Positions 3,952 to 21,448 of a stretch of 32,000 bases of DNA are shown here, one piece after another (the first letter of the stretch is position 1; each line of letters starts with the position of its first letter). Origin of the DNA: an uncultured Chloroflexia bacterium (GTDB lineage Bacteria; Chloroflexota; Anaerolineae; Anaerolineales; Anaerolineaceae); assembly GCA_963704755.1 (NCBI GenBank), contig OY969938.1, forward strand, positions 990,001 to 1,022,000, in the 5' to 3' direction. Both the position numbers and the translations under genes were made by a program. A model generated the notes under the pieces. It made no database searches and was not told the origin of the DNA. It saw only the letters and a program-made list of their open reading frames with translations.

Positions 3952-4003
3952 CTCGAATATAAACAAACGCCCGGCAGCCGCCGGGCGTTTGTTTATATTC
4001 GAG
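3952..4003 (+). terminator. Long perfect hairpin downstream of the ABC operon (putative terminator)
   Basis: Perfect 24-bp stem: ctcgaatataaacaaacgcccggc (3952-3975) with gccgggcgtttgtttatattcgag (3980-4003), 4-nt loop agcc. It lies 13 nt after the stop codon. There is no clean U-tract after the stem, so intrinsic-terminator function is assumed rather than shown. Confidence 0.6.
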
Positions 4004-4334
4004 GTTCTCGGCCGAGAAGGCGGCTTATTTTACCAAATGTTAATCAACACTTTGAAAACCCTTAAAGTTTACTGATTATGATAAATAAGATGGTCACGTG
4101 ATAGAACAGAATATGAAATCATCGCTGAAACACCTAGAAAAACAACAATCCCAGGGAATAAGATTTTCTCCCTGTTAAGTCAGGCGCGCCAGGTTGCAAA
4201 ATAACCCGGTGCGCTTTTTATTTATCCCATCTCTGGTGGTCCTATCTGTGAATTTGCAAACCCCGACCCTTAAAAACAAGCTTTTCACTGTTGCACAATT
4301 ACAGTTTTTACCGGCTGAAAACCGGCAGTATCAT

Positions 4335-5954
4335 ATGGAATTAAAGGATCTCAATTTTTCAAGTTGTTGTATGGATGCCGACACCCTGGTCAGCGATATT
4401 GCCAACCAGTTCAACAAGAATCCCGGCCTATCGGGTGTAATTTTGACGAAGCAAGGGCATTTCACCGGCATCCTATCGCGAGACCGCTGTTTCGAGGCCT
4501 TGGGGCGCCCATTTGGTATTGAGATTTACTCCCGCCGGACCGGGATCGAGTTCTACCGCCAGATCGGCGTTCCCGCGCTCATCCTGGATGCGGCTACCAG
4601 TGTCCAGGTCGCCGTGAAAACCGCGCTCTCGCGTAAGCCGGAAGACATCTACGACCCGATCGTTCTGCGCCTGAACGACCACGGGTATGGCCTGATCGAT
4701 ATGCACACCATCCTTTTGGCCCAGTCCGAGCTGATGGAAAACCTATACGAAGAAGTCCAGTTGCTCTCGACCAAAGATCCCCTGACCAATATCAACAACC
4801 GGCGGGGCTTTCTGGAAGCGGCCGAACCGGCCATCAGCACGGCTCTCGATCACCAATCCGATCTGTCTGCGTTTATGGTCGATATCGACCATTTTAAAAT
4901 TGTGAATGATATTTACGGCCATTTCGTAGGCGACCGGGTGATTTGCGCCGTAGCCGCCGAATGTCAGAAGAGCATCCGCCACACTGACCTGTTGGGCCGC
5001 TTCGGAGGCGAAGAATTTATGGTGCTTCTGCCCAACACGCCCCTGGAAACGGCGCAATTTGTGGCCGAACGGGTGCGCTCGCGGATCGAGAACCTGATGA
5101 TTTACGTGGATGGCTATCAGATTTCGGTAACGGTCAGCATCGGCATTTGCAGCATGAAGGATTCGCGCGAATCCCTCGATCATTTGCTGACCCAAACCGA
5201 CCAGGCCATGTATGCCGCCAAATGGAGCGGGCGTAACCAGATCATCACCTGGGATGCCCTCCTGAGCCAAAAACTGAGACAGAATGGCTCGATCCTGGAG
5301 ACCTTTGGGGACGACCCTGCCCGGAACTGGTTCTACAGCCATAATGGCGCCACACGGATCTACGACGAGACGATCGAAGGTTGGGCGCATGCCCTTGAGC
5401 TGCGGGATAAAGAAGCCGAAGGCCATGCTAAAAGGGTCTCGAATATGGCCGTTGAACTGGCCGGGCGCGTGGGCGTCAATGAAGAGCAACTGGTGGATAT
5501 CCGCCGGGGAGCGCTGCTGCATGACATCGGCAAAATTGCCGTTCCGGATAATATCCTGTTCAAACCAGGCGCACTGACCGAAGAAGAGTGGGAACTTATG
5601 CGCAAACATCCCGTGTACGCCTATGAGCTGCTTTCGCCAATTGCGTACCTGAAAAATTCCATCGACATCCCCTATTGTCACCACGAGCATTGGGATGGGA
5701 GCGGGTATCCGCGCGGGCTCAAAGAGACCGAGATTCCTCTATCCGCGCGCATATTCACGATCATCGACGTTTGGGACGCGCTCAGCACCGATCGCTGTTA
5801 TCGGCCGGCCTGGCCGCCGGATGAAGTCAAGCAGTATATTCAGAACGAATCAGGCAAGTTATTCGACCCAGACATTGTACCGATCTTTTTAACAATACTG
5901 GATGAAAAAGCGCATCTTTCGGCAACGAAAGAGACGGCTGAAAACTTCGTGTAA
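4335..5954 (+). CDS. Bifunctional c-di-GMP enzyme: N-terminal CBS-like sensor, GGDEF diguanylate cyclase, HD-GYP phosphodiesterase
   Basis: GGDEF domain: RRGFLEAAE and GRFGGEEFMVLLP (intact GGEEF). HD-GYP domain: HAKRVSNMA, LLHDIGKIAVPD, HHEHWDGSGYPRGL. The ORF track starts at TTG 4194; the first ATG is at 4335 (MELKDL...). The start is uncertain. Confidence 0.88.
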   Translation: MELKDLNFSSCCMDADTLVSDIANQFNKNPGLSGVILTKQGHFTGILSRDRCFEALGRPFGIEIYSRRTGIEFYRQIGVPALILDAATSVQVAVKTALSRKPEDIYDPIVLRLNDHGYGLIDMHTILLAQSELMENLYEEVQLLSTKDPLTNINNRRGFLEAAEPAISTALDHQSDLSAFMVDIDHFKIVNDIYGHFVGDRVICAVAAECQKSIRHTDLLGRFGGEEFMVLLPNTPLETAQFVAERVRSRIENLMIYVDGYQISVTVSIGICSMKDSRESLDHLLTQTDQAMYAAKWSGRNQIITWDALLSQKLRQNGSILETFGDDPARNWFYSHNGATRIYDETIEGWAHALELRDKEAEGHAKRVSNMAVELAGRVGVNEEQLVDIRRGALLHDIGKIAVPDNILFKPGALTEEEWELMRKHPVYAYELLSPIAYLKNSIDIPYCHHEHWDGSGYPRGLKETEIPLSARIFTIIDVWDALSTDRCYRPAWPPDEVKQYIQNESGKLFDPDIVPIFLTILDEKAHLSATKETAENFV

Positions 5955-10205: not shown

Positions 10206-11669
10206 TCAAATATTTTCTTTCGATAATTCGGCCGCCCGCAGTTTAACCGCAGGATCGCCGAATAAAACGTACCCTTCCGCATCGTTGCGCTCGATCCAGG
10301 TGGTGGCCAGGGTATTCTGATCCACATCCGCTCCCCAGCCGGCTTGCTGCAGGATGGCGCTCAGGCTGGTCGAAAGCGCCGCATAGCGCTCGTTAAAGTC
10401 CTTCAGGGCGTACCCCAACGGTTGGCCGGTCAAGATGCGCCCGATCGCGTTTTGAAAAGTCTGAATCTGCGGCCCGGCGGAGGGCGAAACGATCGAATAG
10501 CCCCAGGCGCGCTCCACGTGGCCGATACAGGCCAGCGCCCCACCGGCGGGATGGGCCAGCCAGGTTTGCGGCAGGGCCGCGAAAAAAGGCGCCTCGGCGA
10601 TACCCGGCGGGGGCTGCCCCGGCGTGTGGATAAACTGGTCCTGGGACGGGGTACCGGCGCCGTAACAGGCGAAATGGAAAATGACCATCCCGCGGACGCA
10701 GGCATTGGGCGGTACATCCGCCGCCGAAAAATAGTGCTCCGGCGCGATGGTTCCAAAGCCGGGCCAATCCTGGCAAAGCAAGGCGCCTTGCGCCTTTGGC
10801 TGGGCCGGATCGCCTCGCGGAAAGCCCATGCCGTGGCTGGCAGTAAAGAGGAACGCCGGCGGTTTTCCGCCGGCCGGTGCGCTGATGGTTTGCAGCAAAG
10901 CCGCCTTACTGGCCGCCTGGCCGATCAACTTTTGAGACTGGAAGCCCCATTGCCCGGCTACCCCGGGCGCAGCCGGTTCCTGGTCATGGGCCGGGCTGCC
11001 ATCCGCCAGCGGACCGGCCAATAGATCGGCCGAAATTTTGGTTGCCTGGTCGAAGGGGTGGCGAGTGGCGAAAAACACAGCCTCTTTTTTGTTTTCCACG
11101 CTCTCAGCCGTCTCGTATTCGATCACCGCGGCGGCGTAGGCGGCGTATTGGTCCGCCTGCTCGAAATACAACCGGCCAACCCCGTAATCGACGTCCAGCA
11201 ATTGGCCAAATTCGAAAGGGATCTGTACCGGGCTGCCGACCAGCAGTAAATAATAGGGCAGCCTGGTTGGCTGCACGTTGCCCGGCGAGACGCCATAGCG
11301 GCCCAGCCAGTCTTCCCATCCTTCGCCTGGCCGATAATCCAGCACCTTGACCAGGGCATCGTTCCCGATCTGTTTGCGGCGGTGTTCGATCAGGGTCTGG
11401 AAAGCGGCTTTGACCGCCGGGGTCTCGTCTTTGGCAAAAACGATGCCCCAGCCGGCCTGGCTGATCTCGGCCGGATCGACCCCCAGGGGCAGCCCCAGGA
11501 ATGGCGTGCGGATCTTGTGCCAGATGCTGGCCAGCCAATTCAGGGTATTTTTGTCACCCACTTCCCCGCGAGCCATTTGCGCTGCTGCCGAGACCGGCAT
11601 AGGCGCTACCAGGTACTCCCCGGTTATGCCGTTGATGCCATTCAGATAAATCAGGTCCTCATCGCTCAT
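10206..11669 (-). CDS. Gingipain-like (peptidase C25 / clan CD) cysteine peptidase, no signal peptide
   Basis: C25-like N-terminal pattern: YYLLLVGSPVQIPF ... DVDYGVGRL ... AAAVIEYE. Caspase-fold dyad candidates are FLFTASHGMG (His) and VIFHFACYGAG (Cys). GGGAGA RBS lies upstream of ATG 11669. Family assignment is by motif memory only. Confidence 0.6.
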   Translation of the reverse strand: MSDEDLIYLNGINGITGEYLVAPMPVSAAAQMARGEVGDKNTLNWLASIWHKIRTPFLGLPLGVDPAEISQAGWGIVFAKDETPAVKAAFQTLIEHRRKQIGNDALVKVLDYRPGEGWEDWLGRYGVSPGNVQPTRLPYYLLLVGSPVQIPFEFGQLLDVDYGVGRLYFEQADQYAAYAAAVIEYETAESVENKKEAVFFATRHPFDQATKISADLLAGPLADGSPAHDQEPAAPGVAGQWGFQSQKLIGQAASKAALLQTISAPAGGKPPAFLFTASHGMGFPRGDPAQPKAQGALLCQDWPGFGTIAPEHYFSAADVPPNACVRGMVIFHFACYGAGTPSQDQFIHTPGQPPPGIAEAPFFAALPQTWLAHPAGGALACIGHVERAWGYSIVSPSAGPQIQTFQNAIGRILTGQPLGYALKDFNERYAALSTSLSAILQQAGWGADVDQNTLATTWIERNDAEGYVLFGDPAVKLRAAELSKENI

Positions 11670-11710
11670 GCATGTCTCCCGCTGTTGAAATCCTGCCTCA
11701 AGCCGGGCTC

Positions 11711-13075
11711 TTACTGGAAAGCATCGCCGGAAAACTCGAGCCAGATAAAAGCACCGTAAGGCTGGGCATCAGCCTGCTTGACCGCGGCCTGGATATCGGC
11801 CTGGGACATGGGCGTCACCTGGCTGGCAATGTTGACGTCGCCCAGGTATTGCTGTAATTCACCGCCGAATGACTCGCCGTTGTAATCGTCCGGTGATACG
11901 CCGATGGTGATCGTCCCAAACGCATTGTAGAAATCGCCAGATTGGTAGGTCGCGCTGGCCTGGTTGGGATCATAGGCATATCCGCGCGCATCCGCCTGGA
12001 CGGCCTGGGGAAAATCCACTTCGGCGGTCACATCCGAATCCAACCAGAGGTCCTGGACCATGGTTGTCCAGGGAAAGGTGGCCAGGAAAGCCTTCTGCAA
12101 ATTGGTATCTTTCCAGGCGCTTCCGGCTACGTGAACGGTCACCTTACCGGTTGGCGGTGCCAGAAAGCTCGGAAAGGGCAGGTTTTCAGCCTGGGCCCTG
12201 GCCTGGGCACTCTCATACCATTTGTCGATTTCGGGGTGTTTGGCGATCAATTCCGGCCGCATGGCCTGCCAGACCTCGAGCTGCACCGGGCTGCGTCCTT
12301 CGATACCCCCCAGAACCGGCGTTTCCTGGCCCGGAACGGAAAACCACAGCTCCCCGGCCGGTAAGCGAGAATTTCCGGTCAGCGAGCCGGTCTGCGGATC
12401 GACCACCCCGTGCAGGCTGACCGCGCCTTCGTACACCTGGACCATGCTGAGCTTTTCATCCGGCAAGTACAACACCGTAAACCAGGTGCCATTGGTCTGT
12501 ACGGTCGAACCGGGAGTTTGGATGTCCACACTCGAAAGGCAGTCGTTCAGCACCCCGGTCAACCCGGCCGTGGCGCACACTCCCAGCCCGCTGGCCGAAT
12601 CTTCTTTGCGGCAGGTCTGGCGGGTCAACCCGGCGCTTTGAAACAAGAACAGCTTCAGGCAGCCCTGGATCTGGATTTCGGCCTGGCCGTTTTTATCGGT
12701 CGTGACCTGGCTATCGGCCTGCAAATCGACCAGGTCATTGGTCAAGACTTCCGCAAGCGGTTGAGTCTGGCCGGCAAAGACCGAGGAAACCAGCCGTTGG
12801 ACCTGCGAATTGACTTTAACCACGGCTACCTGGGTCGGCTGCGGAGTAATCGTATCCAACAGTGCCGCGGTGGGCGTCAGCGTGTCCAAAACGGTCGTCG
12901 CTGTGGCCGGATTGGTAGCGGTTGGGGCGAACGCCTGGGTCACCTCCAGGGCAGGCGGCTGTGGGGTTGGCGATGGGCTGGCTTGTGGGGCAGCCGAACA
13001 GGCCGGTATGGCCAGGGCTAACAAGATTAATAATCCCCAGGTACTACCTTGGGGTCGATTGGTTTTACCTTTCAT
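11711..13075 (-). CDS. FecR-domain-like lipoprotein with Pro/Thr-rich linker
   Basis: Signal peptide plus lipobox (LLALAIPAC/S). AAGGAG RBS lies 7 nt before ATG 13075; a GTG at 13078 is also possible. The P/T/A-rich linker is followed by LVDLQADSQVTTDKNGQAEIQI...LFLFQSAGL and GTWFTVLYL...VQVYEGAVSL, which resemble the FecR beta-sandwich pattern. Confidence 0.6.
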   Translation of the reverse strand: MKGKTNRPQGSTWGLLILLALAIPACSAAPQASPSPTPQPPALEVTQAFAPTATNPATATTVLDTLTPTAALLDTITPQPTQVAVVKVNSQVQRLVSSVFAGQTQPLAEVLTNDLVDLQADSQVTTDKNGQAEIQIQGCLKLFLFQSAGLTRQTCRKEDSASGLGVCATAGLTGVLNDCLSSVDIQTPGSTVQTNGTWFTVLYLPDEKLSMVQVYEGAVSLHGVVDPQTGSLTGNSRLPAGELWFSVPGQETPVLGGIEGRSPVQLEVWQAMRPELIAKHPEIDKWYESAQARAQAENLPFPSFLAPPTGKVTVHVAGSAWKDTNLQKAFLATFPWTTMVQDLWLDSDVTAEVDFPQAVQADARGYAYDPNQASATYQSGDFYNAFGTITIGVSPDDYNGESFGGELQQYLGDVNIASQVTPMSQADIQAAVKQADAQPYGAFIWLEFSGDAFQ

Positions 13076-13092
13076 CACCGCACTCCTTCGCG

Positions 13093-16000
13093 CTAATCTT
13101 CACCGCTTTCGATAAACCTGCTCCAGCGCGTATACCAGCGCTGCGCCACACCCCGGCCGGCCAAGGCGCCCAGGGTCAGCGCCAGGCCGCATAACCCGGC
13201 CTCGATCAAAGCCAATACCTGGTTCCAGCCCGCGAAATGGGCCATCCAGGTCTGCCACCAGCCGGCTGTAAAATGATCGAATTCGCTCGCGAAAAAAGAT
13301 CCCGACAGGGCAATCGCTATCCCGCTGCCCAGGGCCGGCCAGGCCAGGAACAGCGCCTCGACCAGCCCAAACGTGACCGCACCGGCCAGGCCTCGCGCCA
13401 GCCGGCCGAGGGGCGAATCTCCCCGTCCTAAATACAGGGCCGCGCTGAAGCCGGCTCCCGCCAGGAACCCCAGCGGCAGCACTGCCGGGGCTTTGGATAT
13501 CGAAATGCCATTCAAGAGGGCCACGACCAGGTTGGCCAGCCCAAAACCCAGCCAGCCCAGTACAAACACCAGCCCGTTCCTTTGCGGCCGTCCGGGTTGG
13601 CTCTGCCGGTCCAGGCGCAGGGACCTGGCCATCCCGGCTGTCAGGGCAGTGACCCCGGCCAGTAACAGGCCCCAGTACGAAAACAGCGCGAAAAAGATCG
13701 TCCCAAGCTGCGACTGGCTCAACCAGCCCACCACCAGCCGCTCGAACCCCAGGGCCAATCCAGCGCCAATCCCGGTCCCGGCCGCGATCCAGGTGATCTG
13801 GCATCCATTGCGCAAAATCCGCCGGCCGGCGCGCCAGCCATAGACGGCCAGCCTTTGCAGCACGCTGGCTTTCTTGATTTCCGCCACGGCCTGCCCGGCA
13901 TCGGCCAGGGCGCCGGCCAGTTCTGCCCGGCGGATAAACCGGCGGCCGGAGGTATCCAGGTCTGCCAGGGCATGCTCCAGGCGATAAAATGCCTCGCGTT
14001 GCCCCTCCTGAAGGGCCATCAGCGCCAGGGCTGCCGTTCGCCGGCCAATAGTATCCCGGCCGGCCGCGGCGGCCCAGGCCAGGTCGCCATACCCGCCTTC
14101 CTGTTCGGGCCTCTTGGGCAAGTCCGGATCGTTCAAGCCCAGCAGCCGCCCGGCCAGTTCACGAGCCGAGCCTTTCAACGGGTTCACCCCGGCCACCATC
14201 CCGCCCAGTTCGATTGCGCGGATGAAACCCAGACTGCTTTCCAGTGCTTGCAGCCTGTCCAGCCAGGGGCCGGCCGGAACATCCCGGGCTACGGCCGAGC
14301 GCAGTAAAAACAGCACCTTTACCGGTCTTGGATCCAGGTGAGCGCCGTATTCTTCCAGCTTGCGCAATTGGGCCCGGCCGGCCAGGGCGCGATCGCCGGT
14401 TTTGCTTCCCCGGGCGGCCTGAGCAATCTCGGCTAACCAGATCCGCCAGGCCCGCTCCAGCTCGTCACCGGCATTGTAGGCTTGCTGCACCTGCTCACCG
14501 CCCAGGCGGATGGCCTCGTCGGCGATCATCTGGTTAGGAAAGGCGTACCGGTAACAGCCCTGGTTCAGGCGCCGGACCAACAGTTCGGCCTTGACCAGGC
14601 GTTCCAAAATCTGCTCCACGGCCGGCGGAGCCAGCGCCGGCCCTTGCCCGTCCTTGAAGCCATTCAGCGCCGGACTGGCAAGGATCTGCTCTGGCGCAGC
14701 CCAATGGTCCATTTCCGGTGCCGCCATGGCGACCAGGATTTGCCCGGCCAGCCCGGACTGGTCGGCAAAATGGGTTTCCAATTCGTCCTTCATGTAGCGC
14801 ACCAGGATGCCATCCGCACCGCCGGCCTGCTTCAGGTACAGGTTTTCATCGATCAAAGGCGGGTGCAGCTCGCGGGCATGCTGGTACAGCCAGGTGCAGG
14901 TGATCTGTAGCTGGCCGGGGTCAACCCAGGCGGCCGTGTCCTCTGCGCTCGAATCGGTGTACAGGTTGGCCAGGTCGGGGGCAATCAACTCGCGGGCCAG
15001 GGTGGGGTTCAGCGTGACCGGCCAACCCAACGTATCCAGCGGATCGACGATAGCTTCCACGGCCTCATCCAATCCCAACGGTTCCACTTCGATCCAGTTG
15101 CCCGAGCGGTTGGCCAGCCAGGCCTGTAAGTCTCCCAGGTTGGCCAGTGCATCCTTGTGAATCGCGAAGACCAGCTTCAGGCGCTCACCCAGGGCCTCCA
15201 GGGCGGCATTCAATTCGGCCAGCATGGCTTGCTGGTGTTTCCCCTCCAGGCCGGTCACCTGCTCGAACTGGTCCAGGATCAAAGCCAGGGCGGCAAACTG
15301 GCTGAAATTGACCGTGCGCAGCACCTCTGCCAGGGGCGCGTCTCCGCCGACACCCGGGTTGACCGGGTGGCCGGCCACGCGGTAGCCCAGGCGGAATTCT
15401 TGGGCCAGGTCGGCATACGCCGCGATCGAAACTACCAGCCAGTTCTCCTGCTCCAAAACCGGGCGCAGCCCGGCCTCGACCAGCGAGGTCAGCCCTACCC
15501 CGGCTTCGCCGAACACGAGGGTGAGTGGGTAATCGTTCAGGTGCTGGCGGATCTCGGCGATCACCTTTTTGCGCCCGTTGAACAAGTCCTGGTCCTCGCA
15601 CTGGTAAGGCGCCAGGAATTTGTACGGTAGGCGTTGAGCCGGTTTGAAGCGCTGCTCGGGGTTGAACAGGATCCCATCCGGCAGGTGCATGTACAGCACC
15701 GGCACGGCCCACTGCCCGCCGGCTTGCTCCAACAGACCGGCCCGGGCGCGGTTGACCGCCAGGTCCACGCAGCCGGTCTCGAGCAGGCTGGCGAACATCT
15801 GGCAGGCGAACTGGCGCGCCACCTGGTTCTCGACCCGGGCTTGCATACACACCAAAGCCGGGCATCCGGCCCGGACCAATTGCGGTCCCACCCCGGCGAA
15901 GGCATCCTGGCTGGACTGCTGCCCACTCTCACAAGCCGCCAGGAAGATCAGCTCCGGCAGGCGCGGAACGGTGCCGAACAGCTTGACCAGTTCAGCCGAC

Positions 16001-16746
16001 GAGACGCCCACCGGCCCCTGGCTGCCGTCGGGGTAGGTCCCGCTCATCAGCAAGTAGCCGGTCTGCTCGCTCTCCTTCCAATCGCCGTGGCCGACATAAT
16101 ACAGGATATCGAAACCGCCTTCCTGGTTGAGCCGGTCGGCCAGTTGCTGGGCCGTGACCGCGCCGGAGAGCACGTCGTACTCAATCTGCCCGCTGAAACG
16201 GCCGAAAACCTCCTGGATCGATTGCTGCTCCTGGTTTACATCCACGTAAAGGGAGTTGCCGGGCGGAAAGGGGCTGGAAATCAGCACCAGCGCCTTGAGC
16301 GGGCCGGCCGGGAGCGGCAAACCCCAGGGCTGGTCATTTTGCAGGAAGCGTGAAAAATACAGGCCGGCCGCCGGTGCGGCCGGAACCCAGTTGTCCCCCT
16401 CCGGCCGGTACAACCGCTCCCAGGGAATGCGCTGCAGGGCCGGGACCGTTTCATCCAGGTGCAGGCGCAGGCGGATTCCCCGCTCGCCGGCCGCCGTAAC
16501 TGCTCCTTGAAAAGCGCCGGCCAGGCTGCCCGGCAGCAGAGATTGGTACAGCAACTCGCCCAGTGCCTGAGCCGCGTCTGCGCCGGGCTTTTCTTGCAAC
16601 GAACCTGCCTGGGTGGTCAAACCGGCCGGGTCAAGCGTCCCTGAGCCTCCGCTGCCGTCCGGCAGTTCCAGGCGTACCCGGCAAGGTTGTCCGGCCCCTT
16701 GCGAAAGCACTTCTATGCTGACCGGATCCGGCGAAAATTTGAGCAT
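13093..16746 (-). CDS. CHAT-domain protease fused to a STAND-like P-loop NTPase module and a C-terminal 6-7 TM domain
   Basis: CHAT: IPWERLY, ILYYVGHGDW (His220, codon 16087-16089), LIFLAACESGQ (Cys272, codon 15931-15933). NTPase-like: FNGRKKVIAEI...LTLVFGEAGVGLTSLVEAGL (Walker A without Lys, 15487-15510) and ALILDQFEQV (Walker B). The last ~236 aa (13093-~13800) form 6-7 hydrophobic helices. Confidence 0.85.
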   Translation of the reverse strand: MLKFSPDPVSIEVLSQGAGQPCRVRLELPDGSGGSGTLDPAGLTTQAGSLQEKPGADAAQALGELLYQSLLPGSLAGAFQGAVTAAGERGIRLRLHLDETVPALQRIPWERLYRPEGDNWVPAAPAAGLYFSRFLQNDQPWGLPLPAGPLKALVLISSPFPPGNSLYVDVNQEQQSIQEVFGRFSGQIEYDVLSGAVTAQQLADRLNQEGGFDILYYVGHGDWKESEQTGYLLMSGTYPDGSQGPVGVSSAELVKLFGTVPRLPELIFLAACESGQQSSQDAFAGVGPQLVRAGCPALVCMQARVENQVARQFACQMFASLLETGCVDLAVNRARAGLLEQAGGQWAVPVLYMHLPDGILFNPEQRFKPAQRLPYKFLAPYQCEDQDLFNGRKKVIAEIRQHLNDYPLTLVFGEAGVGLTSLVEAGLRPVLEQENWLVVSIAAYADLAQEFRLGYRVAGHPVNPGVGGDAPLAEVLRTVNFSQFAALALILDQFEQVTGLEGKHQQAMLAELNAALEALGERLKLVFAIHKDALANLGDLQAWLANRSGNWIEVEPLGLDEAVEAIVDPLDTLGWPVTLNPTLARELIAPDLANLYTDSSAEDTAAWVDPGQLQITCTWLYQHARELHPPLIDENLYLKQAGGADGILVRYMKDELETHFADQSGLAGQILVAMAAPEMDHWAAPEQILASPALNGFKDGQGPALAPPAVEQILERLVKAELLVRRLNQGCYRYAFPNQMIADEAIRLGGEQVQQAYNAGDELERAWRIWLAEIAQAARGSKTGDRALAGRAQLRKLEEYGAHLDPRPVKVLFLLRSAVARDVPAGPWLDRLQALESSLGFIRAIELGGMVAGVNPLKGSARELAGRLLGLNDPDLPKRPEQEGGYGDLAWAAAAGRDTIGRRTAALALMALQEGQREAFYRLEHALADLDTSGRRFIRRAELAGALADAGQAVAEIKKASVLQRLAVYGWRAGRRILRNGCQITWIAAGTGIGAGLALGFERLVVGWLSQSQLGTIFFALFSYWGLLLAGVTALTAGMARSLRLDRQSQPGRPQRNGLVFVLGWLGFGLANLVVALLNGISISKAPAVLPLGFLAGAGFSAALYLGRGDSPLGRLARGLAGAVTFGLVEALFLAWPALGSGIAIALSGSFFASEFDHFTAGWWQTWMAHFAGWNQVLALIEAGLCGLALTLGALAGRGVAQRWYTRWSRFIESGED

Positions 16747-16770
16747 TCCAACCTGATGGCGCGAGGGTAG

Positions 16771-17112
16771 TCAGCGTCCGGCGTAGAAATTGATCAGGTT
16801 CGGTTTTGGCTTATCTCCTGGAGAATAGGAGATCGGCCCGGAACCGGATGGCTTGACCGGCAGCACCGAAGCGAAGCCTTTGAGGATCAAAGGAGCCGTA
16901 ATGCCCACGTTGATCGACGTCCAGGGGTTATCCGGCCGGATGCCCTGGATCAGCACCAATCCCCCGGAGGCCAGCACCATCACAAAAGTCACCCCCCAAT
17001 AGAAGCCGCTGCGTAGATAAGTGGGCAGGTTGGGCGATTCACGCAGTGAATACCATTTGAGCAGTTCGCCCAACACACCGCCGATGACACCGTAGATAAA
17101 GCTCATAGCCAT
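16771..17112 (-). CDS. Small integral membrane protein (3 predicted TM helices), unknown function
   Basis: ORF 16771..17133. ATG at 17112 (MAMSFIYGV...) is preceded by GGAGGTGG at good spacing, so it is preferred over 17133. Hydrophobic segments: FIYGVIGGVLGELL, FYWGVTFVMVLASGGLVLI, INVGITAPLILKGFASVL. Confidence 0.65.
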   Translation of the reverse strand: MAMSFIYGVIGGVLGELLKWYSLRESPNLPTYLRSGFYWGVTFVMVLASGGLVLIQGIRPDNPWTSINVGITAPLILKGFASVLPVKPSGSGPISYSPGDKPKPNLINFYAGR

Positions 17113-17169
17113 TTTCCACCTCCGTAAGGCCATGCCAACTTGAATAAAATTTATCCCTCCCCATGGGGG

Positions 17170-18465
17170 TTAAAGGGCAAAATAAAGGTTGGCCAGATCG
17201 TTCTCACCGGCAGTTCCGGTTTCGATTTTCAATTGTAGATTCCCTGCCCGCACCTCGGACGAGACCAGGGCCACCTGCTCCGCTTTCAGGGATGGGGCCG
17301 GTTCGGGTTGTTCGGGTAAATCGCATTCCCCGGTACGGATCAGGTCCAACGTCGCGGCGATCACCCGGTTGTTGGCCGGCAGTTTGCGATGTACCTCCTG
17401 GATGTAATAGCAGCTTGCCGACGGCAGCAGTGACGACCACAAAGGTACCGTGCCGTCGCCCGAATCCTCACCTTCGCCAATCGAGTTCATCACCAGGCCG
17501 GCCTGTCCGGAAGCCAGTTTCAATGAAACCAGCGTTTCGACGTTGAAACCGGCGATCACATCCACCGGAATCTGGGGGTGGATCTTCCATAAAACCGCAT
17601 ACATGAAGCGGGCTGCGTCCAGGTACTTTTGGCGAATAGACGGCACCGGCCAGGCCGCTGCATCATACAGGTCGAAATCGACCGGGTAAGGCCGCCCGGA
17701 AGGGAAACTCTCCGGGGGGGCCGGTAGGAGCTGGTAGACGCTGGGGAGGCTGTTGGCCAGCAGGCGCATCTCATTCTGGCTGTTCAACTTATCCACCGTC
17801 TCCATCATCGAGTTACCGTTGACCAGGTTATCGACCGCGTTGGCCGCGCCAAAATTGGGCGTCCCATGCAGGATCAGGCGCTTGACCCGCTTTTCGGCAT
17901 CCCCAGGGTGGCGGGCCATGTAGGTGCGCGCCACCAGGCCGCCCATGGAATGGGCCACCAGGGTAAACTCGCGATGCGGATCACCGGCCGCCCAGCGCTC
18001 GATACGCGCATGCAGCAGGTCGGCGTTGTACTCCATCGGGCGGCGCCAATCGTAAGGGAATTCATGCAGGTGGGTCTGCTTGTTGAGCCGGATACCGATC
18101 TTGAGATAGGTCAGTTTCTCCAGGCCAACCGGCAGACATTCTACCTCAGTCGATTCGTCATCGTTGCCCTCGGCATTCAGGCGCAGGTAACTGCCCTTGC
18201 CCTGCAGGAATACGAGCGGGTTGATCCACAACAGGGTCGTCACCCCGCGGATGCTGGACAGGTTGGAGCCCATAATCCCCGGCAGAAGGATCACTTCTTC
18301 CAACGCGCCCGGCGGCGGCTCGAACGAAATCTGGCGGAGTTCAGCGGCCGTATCCGCGCCGATCAAACGATCCACCGTCTCGGCGTCCTTACCGCTCTGG
18401 ATCTCCGCTTCGATCTCATCCAGCGAAAGGGCCGACCAGCGTTGCAACAGGTCATTGGTATTCAC
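17170..18465 (-). CDS. LCAT-like alpha/beta-hydrolase (putative phospholipase/acyltransferase), first gene of the operon
   Basis: LLPGIMGSNL, FPYDWR (the LCAT/PDAT hallmark), nucleophile elbow VAHSMGGLV, GDGTVP (Asp) and EVHRKL (His). GTG start at 18465 with AGAGGGA upstream. No signal peptide. Confidence 0.75.
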   Translation of the reverse strand: MNTNDLLQRWSALSLDEIEAEIQSGKDAETVDRLIGADTAAELRQISFEPPPGALEEVILLPGIMGSNLSSIRGVTTLLWINPLVFLQGKGSYLRLNAEGNDDESTEVECLPVGLEKLTYLKIGIRLNKQTHLHEFPYDWRRPMEYNADLLHARIERWAAGDPHREFTLVAHSMGGLVARTYMARHPGDAEKRVKRLILHGTPNFGAANAVDNLVNGNSMMETVDKLNSQNEMRLLANSLPSVYQLLPAPPESFPSGRPYPVDFDLYDAAAWPVPSIRQKYLDAARFMYAVLWKIHPQIPVDVIAGFNVETLVSLKLASGQAGLVMNSIGEGEDSGDGTVPLWSSLLPSASCYYIQEVHRKLPANNRVIAATLDLIRTGECDLPEQPEPAPSLKAEQVALVSSEVRAGNLQLKIETGTAGENDLANLYFAL

Positions 18466-18721: not shown

Positions 18722-19951
18722 CAAGATCAATCCGGCGAATAAATTCGCTGCTACAAATGCACGAAACCCGGCCTTCGCCGGGTTCAACCCCGTTGAGGTA
18801 ATGTTTCATATAATAATCGACATAAATGAACAATTCATTCGAACTCGGCCTTCCCCTGGCGGAACCCCACGAAGGTGGGGTTTCGTGTCCTTGTTGCCGC
18901 GGTTTCAACCGCCGAGATCAAGCAGTGGCTCCAACCTTTCCAATCAATCCGGCAAATAAATTCGCTGCTACAAGGGCACGAAACCCGGCCTTCGCCGGGT
19001 TCAACCCCGTTGAGGTAATGTTTCATATAATATCGACATAAATGAACAATTCATACGAACTCGGCCTTCCCCTGGCGGAACCCCACACAGGTGGGGTTTC
19101 GTGTCCTGGTTGCCGCGGTTTCAACCGCCGAGATCAAGCTTTGGCTCCAACCTTTCCAATCAATCCGGCGAATAAATTCGCAGCTACGAGTTCACGAAAC
19201 CCGGCCTTCGCCGGGTTCAACTCCGTTGAGGTAATGATTCATATAATATCGACATAAATGAACAAATTATACGAATTCGGCCTTCCCCTGGCGGAACCCC
19301 ACGAAGGTGGGGTTCCGTGTCCTTGTTGCCGCGGTTTCAACCGCCGAGATCAAGCAGTGGTTGCAACCTTTCCAATCAATCCGGCGAATAAATTCGCAGC
19401 TACAAATGCACGAAACCCGGCCTTCGCCGGGTTCAACTCCGTTGAGGTAATGATTCATATAATATCGACATAAATGAACAATTCATACGAACTCGGCCTT
19501 CCCCTGGCGGAACCCCACGTAGGTGGGGTTTCGTGTCCTTGTTGCCGCGGTTTCAACCGCCGAGATCATGCTTTGGCTCCAACCTTTCCAATCAATCCGG
19601 CGAATAAATTCGCAGCTACGAGTACACGAAACCCGGCCTCCGCCGGGTTCGACCCTATTGAGCATTACTTCATACCAGTTCGCTATAAATGAACAAATCA
19701 TACGAACTCAGCCTTCGCCTGGCGGAACCCCACGAAGGTGGGGGTTCGTGTCCTTGTTGCCGCGGTTTCAACCGCCGAGATCATGCTTTGGCTCCAACCT
19801 TTCCAATCAATCCGGCTGCTACAAATGCACGAAACCCGGCCTTCGCCGGGTTCGACCCTATTGAGATAGTTTCTTATTCGTCAATAAATCAAATGAACGG
19901 CGTATAACAATCAACTTTTGCCTGGCTGAACCCACGAAGGTGGGGTTTCGT
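18722..19951 (+). repeat. Tandem array of ~216-bp multi-hairpin units, left block (about 5.7 units)
   Basis: Units are anchored on cataa|atgaac. Partial U0 18722-18825; U1 18826-19041, U2 19042-19257 and U3 19258-19473 (216 bp each); U4 19474-19688; U5 19689-19892 (12-bp deletion); partial U6 19893-19951. Each unit holds four hairpins: H1 ggaaccccac-NNNN-gtggggtttc, H2 gcggt-ttca-accgc, H3 gcgaa-taaa-ttcgc and H4 aacccggc-cttc-gccgggtt. Confidence 0.95.
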
Positions 19952-20594
19952 ATTCATAGAGTCAAAATTTCGATAACTAAACGCTTTATGTTTGCATATC
20001 ATCATCCACTTTTTGATACAATTTTTTCAACCATCGGAAATTCTCAGTAAATAATTTCCTAATCACAAAGTCACGAATTTCAGGAAAATTTAAAAAGGAT
20101 AGTCCCATGCGCACCCCCTTCACCCAACTCTATTTACACTGCGTCTGGTCAACCTGGGATCGGTTACCCTTACTTACTCCACAAAGCGAACCACCAATTT
20201 ATTCTGCAATTTTAAATAAGTGTCTTGAATTAAAGTGTGATGCCCTGGCAATCGGTGGGATTGAAGATCATATTCATCTTTTGGTCAGGTTTCCAGCCAC
20301 AATCAGTGTATCGGATTTCGTTAAAGAAGTTAAAGGAACTTCCTCTCACCTGATTAATCATCAAATTAATCCAGGTGAATTCTTCAAATGGCAAGGAGCA
20401 TATGGTGCCTTTACAGTAAGCAAAAACTTAGTGGAAGTGGTACAGAAATATATCAACCTGCAAAAACAACATCACGCCGATCAAAATCTCTACCATGAAT
20501 GGGAGCAAACTTTCTTTAACGAATAATATAATATTTTGAGTTTTCGCTAATAAAGCCCAGCTTCTGACGGAACCCCACGCAAGTGGGGTTTCGT
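19928..20594 (+). mobile_element. RAYT / IS200-like Y1 transposase cassette bounded by two copies of array hairpin H1
   Basis: Array homology stops after ...gaacccacgaaggtggggtttcgt (19928-19951). It resumes at ...ggaaccccacgcaagtggggtttcgt (20569-20594). The AT-rich interval in between carries only the transposase gene. Confidence 0.7.
20107..20526 (+). CDS. REP-associated tyrosine transposase (RAYT) / IS200-family Y1 HUH transposase
   Basis: 139 aa. LYLHCVWSTWDR, HUH motif EDHIHLLVRFP, catalytic Tyr region FKWQGAYGAFTVS, and YINLQKQHH. This matches the layout of Y1_Tnp (PF01797)-type proteins. Confidence 0.85.
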   Translation: MRTPFTQLYLHCVWSTWDRLPLLTPQSEPPIYSAILNKCLELKCDALAIGGIEDHIHLLVRFPATISVSDFVKEVKGTSSHLINHQINPGEFFKWQGAYGAFTVSKNLVEVVQKYINLQKQHHADQNLYHEWEQTFFNE

Positions 20595-21269
20595 GTCCTT
20601 GTTGCCGCGGTTTCAACCGCCGAGATCAAGCTTTGGCTCCAACCTTTCCATTCAATCCGGCGAATAAATTCGCTGCTACAAATGCACGATACCCGGCGTA
20701 GGCCGGGTTCGACCCCGTTGAGATATTGTTTCATATAACATCGCCATAAACGAACAACTCATACGAACTCGGCCTTCCCCTGGCGGAACCCCACGAAGGT
20801 GGGGTTTCGTGTCCTTGTTGCCGCGGTTTCAACCGCCGAGATCAAGCAGTGGCTCCAACCTTTTCAATCAATCCGGCGAATAAATTCGCTGCTACGAATG
20901 CACGAAACTCGGCCTTCGCCGGGTTCAACCCCGTTGAGGTAATGTTTCATATAATATCGACATAAATGAACAATTCATACGAACTCGGCCTTCGCCTGGC
21001 GGAACCCCACGAAGGTGGGGTTTCGTGCCCCAGTTGCCGCGGTTTCAACCGCCGAGATCATGCTTTGGCTCCAACCTTTTCAATCAATCCGGCGAATAAA
21101 TTCGCTGCTACAAATGCACGAAACCCGGCCTTCGCCGGGTTCAACCCCGTTGAGGTAATGATTCATATAATATCGACATAAATGAACAATTCATACGAAC
21201 TCGGCCTTCGCCTGGCGGAACCCCACGAAGGTGGGGTTTCGTGTCCTTGTTGCCGCGGTTTCAACCGCC
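20556..21269 (+). repeat. Tandem array of ~216-bp multi-hairpin units, right block (about 3.3 units), same orientation as left block
   Basis: Partial U7 ~20556-20749, U8 20750-20965 (its first codon is acg, not atg), U9 20966-21181, partial U10 21182-21269. Homology ends inside H2 at ...tcaaccgcc. Confidence 0.95.
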
Positions 21270-21448
21270 CCATACGGGAAATTTACGAAATCTCACCTTT
21301 TCGGTCGCGAAATTTCCTTGATTTACCAAACTGTAATCTTATCTACACAAAATCTGAATCATTTTCTTTTATCCTCTTAGTCAGGTCTTGATACTGCTTA
21401 AGAAAGACGGCCCAATTTTTACTCTTTAGAATCAAACAAGGAGAACAC

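Follow-up and report, generated by a model that had tools for sequence, protein, structure and literature searches.

The 32,000-nt stretch of DNA analysed here (the window; contig OY969938.1 of assembly GCA_963704755.1, positions 990,001 to 1,022,000, from an uncultured Chloroflexia bacterium of the Anaerolineaceae) carries a gene for a small HUH/Y1 transposase, tnpA, set within an array of 216-bp tandem repeats. Each repeat unit is made of two copies, in opposite orientation, of a two-hairpin module, and modules of the same kind flank tnpA in most of the 80 related loci that were examined. Our preferred interpretation, which we consider probable, is that the locus is a unit similar to the REPtrons and BIME-2 arrays (repetitive extragenic palindrome, REP; bacterial interspersed mosaic element, BIME) of Escherichia coli, with a low-copy chromosomal Y1 enzyme resembling those of the insertion sequence (IS) IS200 acting on a cognate two-hairpin repeat.

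The module is 53-56 nt long in the array and consists of a first hairpin (H1), a GT[A/T]G tag and a second hairpin (H2). Hairpins of the H1 type are G+C-rich, with a stem of 8-12 bp and a GNAG loop; those of the H2 type are short and near-palindromic (GCGGTTTCAACCGC-like) and begin 2 nt past the tag. Two subtypes sit in opposite orientation, A ('<'), which is tagged GTAG in the window, and B ('>'), which is tagged GTTG. A 216-bp unit can thus be written as '> 33 nt < 80 nt', the 80-nt spacer being AT-rich, and since the array opens with '<' and closes with '>', H2-type hairpins lie outermost. Nine A modules on the minus strand alternate with nine B modules on the plus strand at spacings of 33 and ~80 nt, which is the layout of BIME-2. 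The unpaired tetranucleotide that stands at the 5' foot of the stem-loop in GTAG-tagged REPs has its equivalent in the GT[A/T]G placed 2 nt 5' of H2, so that tag and hairpin are arranged as in those REPs.

An element of ~53 nt with the same plan (H1-type hairpin, linker, H2-type hairpin) recurs in the tnpA flanks across the 80 related loci, which come from species-representative genomes and total 739 kb. A covariance model of the module, R1, was built from 20 loci, with a single row from the window, and conservation was measured over 142 distinct modules from the related loci. Standard pairing is seen in 94% of pair cells, against at most 42% with the partners slid, and double-sided changes are present in seven of 13 pairs (329 cells), with compensatory changes in both hairpins. 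The tag, T-G-T-[A/T]-G, has its G, T and G invariant in 140-142 of the 142 modules, with A (74) or T (65) at the third position of GT[A/T]G, and the H1 loop has the consensus G-N-A-G. Within the window, R1 scores the nine '+' modules (B: H1, GTTG, H2) at 50-62 bits; of the nine '-' modules (A: an H4-type hairpin, GTAG, H3, where H4 is of the H1 type and H3 of the H2 type), seven score 51-64 bits and two altered copies 35.5-36.5 bits. These 18 full modules form the largest cluster seen, the related loci included.

The modules are strongly concentrated at the gene. R1 gives 397 matches at E<0.01 in the related loci, and densities by distance, taken from a hidden Markov model (HMM) version of the module model, reach 11.7 per kb upstream and 11.3 per kb downstream within 100 bp of tnpA; between 100 and 200 bp they are down to 5 per kb, and past 2 kb to 0.04-0.06 per kb, which amounts to a local enrichment of more than 200-fold. 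A module lies upstream in 75 of the 80 loci and downstream in 75 (median distances 28 and 36 bp), and 69 of them, like the window, have modules on both sides, the flanking arrangement of a REPtron. The commonest layouts are '<>[tnpA]<>' (18 loci), '<[tnpA]<>' (nine) and '<[tnpA]>' (six). Local multiplication is also recurrent, with at least three modules on one side of tnpA in 30 of the 80 loci and at least five in ten; Tandem Repeats Finder (TRF) detects module arrays adjoining tnpA in many loci, with periods of 44-286 bp, an example being the 144-bp period, 6.9-copy array beside tnpA in the genome of loci L001 and L029, whose protein is 72% identical to that of the window.

The association is both polarised and specific. 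The commonest H1 stems, relative to the gene strand, differ between '<' and '>' modules, which means that doublet polarity is conserved. In the window, L029 and L082, whose proteins are 71-72% identical, AACCCCAC-GAAG-GTGGGG is found 11-47 nt past the stop codon, and this common H1 core makes the right-hand H1 of the window the gene's own conserved partner. Paralogues in one genome have different module types when they are 70% identical and similar ones when they are 91% identical, and protein similarity correlates with module similarity (Spearman 0.31, a value reached by 0 of 500 permutations). The initial annotation of the window, made from its letters alone, had proposed that enzyme and array hairpins are partners; a flanking module in 75 of 80 loci on each side, the H1 core in the three closest relatives and the recurrence of arrays make this very likely.

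The 139-aa product of tnpA is a member of the HUH/Y1 superfamily (Pfam Y1_Tnp, PF01797; 83.4 bits, cut-off 23). The family alignment shows no variation in DHIH (residues 54-57) or Y115, and every family-invariant residue is present in the window protein. Family members are 139-146 aa long and are 60-72% identical between Chloroflexi and Cyanobacteria; the consensus is DHVH / KWQG / YIExQKxHH, with DH[IV]H, KWQG and Y-I-x-x-Q-K-x-H-H invariant or nearly so. As a protein it is IS200/IS605-like. It passes the NCBIfam IS200 model NF033573 (66.3 bits, cut-off 55), its best phmmer matches in the PDB are 2f4f, 2a6m and 2xm3, from the Sulfolobus, IS608 and ISDra2 transposases, and the top Foldseek matches of its AlphaFold model (predicted local distance difference test, pLDDT, 74) are ISDra2, IS608 and Sulfolobus TnpA, at E values of 1e-9 to 1e-7. 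The E. coli TnpA_REP structure (4er8) appears at Foldseek rank 30, with 14% identity, and the model for REP-associated tyrosine transposases (RAYTs), NF047646, gives 20.8 bits against a cut-off of 80. RAYTs are the class 2 Y1 transposases, which are defined by Y---NP (PMC6006769), where the window protein has Y---Q--HH. On these grounds, and with folds of the ISDra2/IS608 kind as its nearest, the enzyme cannot keep the label 'RAYT-type' that it was first given.

In its genetics the family nevertheless appears unlike a multicopy IS. In one population (P0002) all 12 contigs have the gene in a single fixed housekeeping context, hrcA-grpE-dnaK-dnaJ-prmA-tnpA-polX; no relative above 39% identity was found on 72,556 plasmids; and paralogues within a genome are 70-91% identical. 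The direct subterminal hairpins that define an IS200/IS605 element find no match either: H1 copies are direct in the window, but complete modules bracket the gene in inverted orientation both there and in relatives, and L082 has no module or hairpin upstream, where 31 bp separate tnpA from the preceding gene. Thus the locus is organised as a REPtron, and falls outside both the protein definition of a RAYT and the element definition of IS200/IS605. A published subclass with these properties exists. Subclass 1.2 of Quentin et al. 2018 is characterised by DH[IV]H, WQ and Y---Q--HH, a short core, a length of ~148 aa and low copy number; it lies near IS200 without IS properties, is listed as 'REP: no' and has no entry in the REP table of that study (PMC6006769). 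Judged from motifs, length (139-146 aa) and low copy number rather than from reference sequences, the window enzyme probably belongs there. Its clade may also be the 'IS200 group 3' of Bertels et al. 2017, which lacks duplicates and plasmid copies, is flanked by abundant 16-mers and was suspected of being RAYT-like (PMC5581495).

Modules are also found away from any tnpA, as the proposed partnership had led the initial annotation to expect of H1. In 13 of the 80 related loci a total of 29 modules lie at least 1 kb from tnpA (~0.05 per kb), mostly as '<>' doublets whose halves have different H1 stems. When distal and gene-proximal doublets of the same genome are compared, homology stops 0-5 nt outside H2 in three of five loci (L017, L027, L034), so it is at H2 that the repeated unit ends. 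A metagenome scan with an H1-core pattern returned 21 contigs, of which 18 lack tnpA and include 6-8-kb contigs with intergenic doublets; the exact pattern of the full window-type B module had 0 matches in a scan of this kind. The repeats also affect the sequence record itself. Short-read contigs of one strain (P0080; L093, L094, Logan) end ~86 nt after tnpA, at the point where a 65-bp module array starts in the long assembly, and many homologues found by protein search are on contigs of less than 3 kb only, so module repeats seem to break assemblies systematically.

At the locus itself, TRF resolves a single 216-bp repeat into two blocks, at 18726-19816 (5.1 copies, 92% matches) and 20564-21269 (3.3 copies, 93% matches), in agreement with the original description of H1 as embedded in a 216-bp tandem repeat; alignment of the units shows that a diverged sixth unit carries the left block on to 19951. 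The 612-bp cassette between the blocks is AT-rich (G+C 0.385 over 20001-20400), its sole credible open reading frame (ORF) is the 139-aa tnpA, and it has no detectable homology to the array unit, local alignments scoring no better than shuffles. H1 has the sequence GGAACCCCAC-GAAG-GTGGGGTTTC and is present in ten copies in the array, all on the plus strand; elsewhere in the 32 kb there is none, save one unrelated match in a coding region. The picture of an AT-rich cassette of ~600 bp, encoding only this enzyme and set between two direct H1 copies, was therefore accurate.

The edges of the cassette can be placed closely. On the left, homology with the unit ends after ...GGTGGGGTTTCGT at 19951, exactly where the break had been put; the right-hand copy of this string ends at 20594 and then runs on into the unit (GTCCTTGTTGCC...). 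The hairpin scan gives H1 a 12-bp stem (GCGGAACCCCAC / GTGGGGTTTCGT), and the break after TTTCGT is thus the 3' foot of the hairpin, so that the cassette extends foot to foot between two whole hairpins, the left of which is degenerate, lacking one C and mismatched near the stem base. The restart of homology needs correction: it had been placed about 30 nt before the second H1 but lies at 20564, so that only 3 nt separate it from the hairpin's 5' foot and 5 nt from the H1 start used in the initial annotation; the 35-70 nt preceding it are no closer to the unit than shuffled sequence is. A segment of 30/31 nt (19922-19951 and 20564-20594) is common to the two sides, with 26 of 31 aligned columns identical, which bears out the claim of a shared H1-bearing segment of ~30 bp. 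A promoter scan of the region gave no excess over shuffles, and Rfam at gathering thresholds and ARAGORN found nothing in the window; the units thus belong to no known RNA family and form no tRNA array.

The G+C content of tnpA is 40%, compared with 58% in its flanks and ~58-60% in the genome. Among 72 related loci this deficit is the largest (median -5.7 points), and the array itself has ~50% G+C. Either a recent transfer from a donor richer in AT or a mutational bias of DNA that is often single-stranded may lie behind the low value.

tnpA lies in a '<...>' interval, which in the other units is the 80-nt spacer and which here runs from '<' (19811-19854) through 255 nt, tnpA and 47 nt to '>' (20569-20624). 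Both modules to the left of tnpA lack an H2-type hairpin. The '<' has lost it by a 12-nt deletion, and an extra '>' (19926-19966) ends after a possible degenerate tag, TTTCGT-ATTCATAG, which is alike to the A-type linker TTTCGTGCATTTGTAG at ~7/10 positions, a marginal match. For the left H1 the best reading is a leftover of an upstream '>' module, matching the common '<>[tnpA]...' layout, rather than a target duplication. The contrast first drawn with REP systems, between direct hairpins here and inverted pairs there, holds only in part: the left H1 is indeed direct, but it comes from a decayed '>' module, and the complete modules are inverted as they are in REPtrons.

The units nearest the gene are the most diverged, with identities to the others of 87-89% (u4), 80-83% (u5) and 89-91% (u6R). 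Distal units on both sides are 94-97% alike, u7 being 96.8% identical to u1 across the gene, and a two-unit variant pattern is present in which CAGTGG and CTTTGG alternate. From these identities, old gene-proximal units with a later amplification or homogenisation of the outer ones would fit the array. The notion that the units are gene-bearing units with internal deletions finds no support, as the cassette ends score 21 against the 80-nt spacer, with a shuffle mean of 17 and a maximum of 25. One unit is peculiar in another way: in the '<' module of u6R (20656-20711), the H1-type (H4) loop is GTAG on the plus strand and CTTC in all other units. The closing pairs are retained, and the change looks like a loop flip or replacement inside a conserved stem. 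The features of the locus are collected in the table.

Table. Features of the tnpA locus, with positions in the window; bit scores are those of model R1
Feature	Position	Strand	Description
tnpA, HUH/Y1 transposase, 139 aa	20107-20526	+	HUH motif DHIH (H55, H57), KWQG, Tyr115 in YINLQKQHH
Left array block	18726-19951	.	5.7 units, the last two (19509-19951) most diverged; TRF, unit alignment and identity matrix
Right array block	20564-21269	.	3.3 units; ends 1 nt beyond the 3' foot of an H2 hairpin; TRF
Cassette, AT-rich, 612 bp	19952-20563	+	155 nt upstream, tnpA, 37 nt downstream
Left H1 copy (H1')	19925-19951	+	Degenerate; its 3' foot bounds the cassette on the left; only a 5-bp core passes the hairpin scan
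Right H1 copy	20567-20594	+	12-bp stem, loop GCAA; 5' foot 3 nt from the right edge of the cassette; hairpin scan
A module '<', terminal, left end of array	18731-18786	-	H4-type hairpin, GTAG, H3 GCGAATTTATTCGC; 60.3 bits
B module '>'	18861-18916	+	62.0 bits
A module '<'	18948-19003	-	55.1 bits
B module '>'	19077-19132	+	50.3 bits
A module '<'	19164-19219	-	55.9 bits
B module '>'	19293-19348	+	62.0 bits
A module '<'	19380-19435	-	63.9 bits
B module '>'	19509-19564	+	61.1 bits
A module '<'	19596-19651	-	56.8 bits
B module '>'	19724-19779	+	56.5 bits
A module '<', nearest the gene on the left	19811-19854	-	35.5 bits, 12 model positions deleted
Decayed '>' module	19926-19966	+	H1', TTTCGT, possible degenerate tag (cATAG), no H2; 18.4 bits, H2 part of the model deleted
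B module '>', the gene's own downstream module	20569-20624	+	H1, GTTG, H2 (GCGGTTTCAACCGC); 55.2 bits
A module '<' (u6R), altered H1-type loop	20656-20711	-	36.5 bits; alignment
B module '>'	20785-20840	+	62.0 bits
A module '<'	20872-20927	-	51.1 bits
B module '>'	21001-21056	+	57.9 bits
A module '<'	21088-21143	-	60.3 bits
B module '>', terminal	21217-21272	+	H2 is the right end of the array; 61.3 bits

How might such an array be made? In E. coli, TnpA_REP depends on both GTAG and the REP hairpin, acts on single-stranded DNA only and cleaves at nearby sites, and tandem BIMEs can be put together through its strand transfer (PMC3333891). A second precedent is offered by IS608 and ISDra2, whose hairpins are recognised on the lagging-strand template. 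By analogy, the window enzyme may bind and cleave the modules, and the array may be its product. The enzyme would bind the tag and H2 on single-stranded DNA, with the variable H1 possibly adding specificity for a particular paralogue; Tyr115 would then cleave near the foot of H2 and the strands would be rejoined. Strand transfer of this kind could excise, insert and tandemly add module-bounded segments, mostly in cis, and the outcome would be gene-adjacent arrays with occasional dispersed '<>' doublets. At this locus, '<>' doublets with their 33-nt linker and 80-nt AT-rich spacer would have been amplified into nine 216-bp units around the gene. The initial annotation took H1 to be the recognised hairpin. 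H1 is part of the conserved module, but it is only half of it; the tag is the invariant part and H2 ends the repeated unit, and on sequence grounds GT[A/T]G plus H2 is a better candidate for the recognised site.

Several points weigh against this interpretation. The pair counts that support the module were taken from an alignment fitted with the covariance model, which favours the model's own structure, even if the margin is large. R1 has no matches at E<0.01 elsewhere in the window, whose remaining 29 kb are module-free. The correlation between protein and module similarity may come from shared host phylogeny, and the 18-point G+C deficit of tnpA relative to its flanks finds no explanation in the proposed scheme. 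The likeness of 95-97% between units across the gene could equally well come from gene conversion, or from a cassette that entered an older array. Hairpin-rich repeat arrays can also grow without an enzyme, by slippage or unequal crossing-over. Lastly, the characterised class 1 enzymes use a hairpin together with guide-sequence pairing, act on one strand only and do not recognise GTAG. As the window enzyme is of class 1, the analogy with TnpA_REP may fail.

The enzyme-free growth of such arrays leads to the alternative that gene and array are mere neighbours, the array having arisen by slippage or unequal recombination, the modules being RNA or DNA elements such as terminators, mRNA stabilisers or protein-binding sites, and tnpA being domesticated or decaying. 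We regard this as unlikely, though it has several observations in its favour. H1 with a T-rich stretch passes a lenient terminator scan at 11 sites where 3.9 are expected, slippage-type deletions in hairpins occur (for example the 12-nt loss in the H2-type (H3) hairpin of a '<' module), the variant pattern alternates over a two-unit higher-order period (CAGTGG/CTTTGG), and the left and right blocks appear to have been homogenised. Slippage leaves unexplained the presence of a module within 100 bp of both gene ends in 75 of 80 loci from several phyla, the paralogue-specific module types, the polarised association and the sharp H2 ends of gene-free doublets, and a decaying gene is hard to reconcile with the retention of all catalytic and family-invariant residues at 60-72% identity across phyla. 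An alternative that keeps the enzyme active but changes its substrate is that H1 is the recognised subterminal hairpin and that H1-cassette-H1 is an IS200-like mobile unit entering or leaving the array. The cassette does lie exactly foot to foot between two direct H1 hairpins, direct '>' modules on both sides are common ('<>G<>' and '<>G>', where G is the gene, make up 22 loci), the protein is IS200/IS605-like by HMM and fold, and covariation support for H1 is strong. In the relatives, however, H1 is never found alone but always with the tag and H2, the invariant part; repeated doublets end at H2, not H1; some relatives, such as L082 with its 31 bp to the preceding gene, have no upstream module; the left H1 is degenerate; and neither a second copy of the cassette nor a close relative on plasmids is known. 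This makes a mobile H1-bounded unit improbable.

Two further possibilities can be treated more briefly. Chance insertion of an ordinary multicopy IS200 into an unrelated satellite-like repeat would suit the score above the NCBIfam IS200 equivalog cut-off and the foreign composition of the cassette (40% against 58% G+C). It seems very improbable, since the modules of the array are of the same kind as those at the 80 related loci, the H1 core is common to the closest relatives, the clade is low-copy, fixed in chromosomal context and absent from plasmids, and the Y---Q--HH motif is that of the non-IS subclass 1.2 (PMC6006769). The other possibility is that the units are tandem genes for 71-aa peptides, as 216 bp is 72 codons, most units can be read as ATG...TAA and seven contain back-to-back ORFs of 71-72 aa. 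In two units the start codon is missing or stops interrupt the frame, what is conserved is hairpins whose changes are compensatory, variable columns are distributed 11/6/7 over the codon positions, and there are 22 nonsynonymous changes to nine synonymous; the codon-position and substitution counts rule out coding, and the peptide-gene idea is almost certainly wrong.

Among known systems, the REPtron and BIME-2 of E. coli (PMC3333891) offer the closest parallel to the preferred REPtron-like reading in organisation: a Y1/HUH gene between inverted stem-loop repeats, a GTAG-type tetranucleotide 5' of the hairpin, two alternating subtypes (y and z2 there), tandem doublets and gene-free intergenic copies. 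The differences are considerable. The window enzyme is of class 1 and not class 2 (Y---Q--HH in place of Y---NP, with the RAYT HMM failed), its repeat is bipartite, with two separate hairpins in 53-56 nt, its tag is GTAG or GTTG at 2 nt from the stem, its repeats are strongly concentrated beside the gene, the array unit is much longer than that of BIME-2 (216 bp, with the 80-nt AT-rich spacer) and its hosts are Chloroflexi and Cyanobacteria. The systems of Pseudomonas and enterobacteria in which REP doublets form hairpins, the REPIN-RAYT systems (PMC3116915, PMC5581495), likewise have a single or low-copy, non-plasmid gene between inverted doublets, doublets that are also dispersed and paralogues with their own repeat types. 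The window protein is outside RAYT groups 1-5, and because the halves of the window doublets have different H1 stems, they do not fold into one long hairpin.

By sequence and fold, IS608, ISDra2 and IS200 are closest; they share with the window the HUH and Tyr core, a size of ~0.6-0.7 kb and hairpins on both sides. Unlike IS200/IS605 elements, the family shows no multicopy identical elements and no tnpB, its complete modules are inverted, its flanking repeats have been amplified on their own and its chromosomal position is fixed in one population. The likeness to subclass 1.2 extends to motifs, length (~140-148 aa), low copy number, the lack of typical IS200 ends and occurrence in Cyanobacteria, whereas the conserved cognate module and the prominence of Chloroflexi as hosts are not in the published account of that subclass (PMC6006769). 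The GTAG REP families (PMC3733652), as far as their text descriptions go, are also tagged stem-loops from the same phyla, in dimers and tandem groups and with an association with tyrosine transposases; in those descriptions the Chloroflexi family GTAG-23 is from Thermomicrobium, and a two-hairpin module is not mentioned. One cyanobacterial GTAG REP of that set may overlap the H2 half of the module. A literal search of the literature with six module sequences had no matches, and neither the bipartite module nor its link to subclass 1.2 enzymes was found described there.

Some observations outside these questions deserve a record. Beside the array, on the minus strand at 10206-18465, is a conserved cluster that is syntenic with 3030-11240 of L099 at 65% identity. 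Its genes encode an LCAT/PGAP1-like hydrolase, a 112-120-aa ORF, a CHAT/nSTAND1 protein of ~1210 aa, a 432-455-aa ORF and a C25 peptidase, and it could be a caspase-like or STAND defence-type module. In this L099-type relative, which keeps the neighbouring cluster and is only 65% identical, synteny ends exactly at the position of the array, and neither tnpA nor modules are present, the joint absence being in line with the preferred reading. At 4001-4400 the window has an isolated stretch of low G+C (0.405) in a region that is otherwise 55-60% G+C. In the genome of L029, another array lies at 2733-3155 of L001 (78-bp period, 5.4 copies, 97% matches). It has other G+C-rich hairpins, GGGCGGCTTTCCAAAGCCGCC and GGGCGGCGGGATGTGGAATCCCGCCC, gives no R1 match and may be a second REP-like family of that genome. 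In Oscillatoriales/Microcoleus (L042, L071, L073, L078 and L080), a gene whose internal repeats are built on 120 bp (consensus ...CTTCTCCTTGGCGATCTCCGATTTCCCG..., with TRF periods of 120-477 bp) is found ~2-3 kb downstream of tnpA; the constant distance suggests conserved synteny, and so vertical inheritance, of the tnpA locus among these cyanobacteria.

To our knowledge, work on REP and BIME sequences and RAYT enzymes has been confined almost entirely to Proteobacteria, with the enzymes in every case of class 2. Here, a class 1, IS200-like enzyme is tightly and recurrently coupled to a bipartite module and its local arrays, in spite of the 'REP: no' listing of its subclass. It is a real possibility, though short of a probability, that this is a second, independently evolved REP/BIME-type system, built on a class 1, subclass 1.2 enzyme in Chloroflexi, Cyanobacteria and a few other phyla, in which a variable, paralogue-specific H1 would give specificity, the tag and H2 would provide the cleavage site and the end of the repeat, and action would be mainly in cis, raising BIME-like arrays around the enzyme's own gene. 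If so, the published REP-less status of the subclass would be overturned, and REP-type domestication would have occurred at least twice in the Y1 family. The covariance model of the module can also serve annotators in recognising these repeats, at which short-read assemblies of Chloroflexi and Cyanobacteria seem to break. If the enzyme does act on the modules, its 139 aa would offer a compact model for the domestication of HUH transposases, for the building of arrays on single-stranded DNA and for the division of hairpin specificity and cleavage site between two stem-loops.

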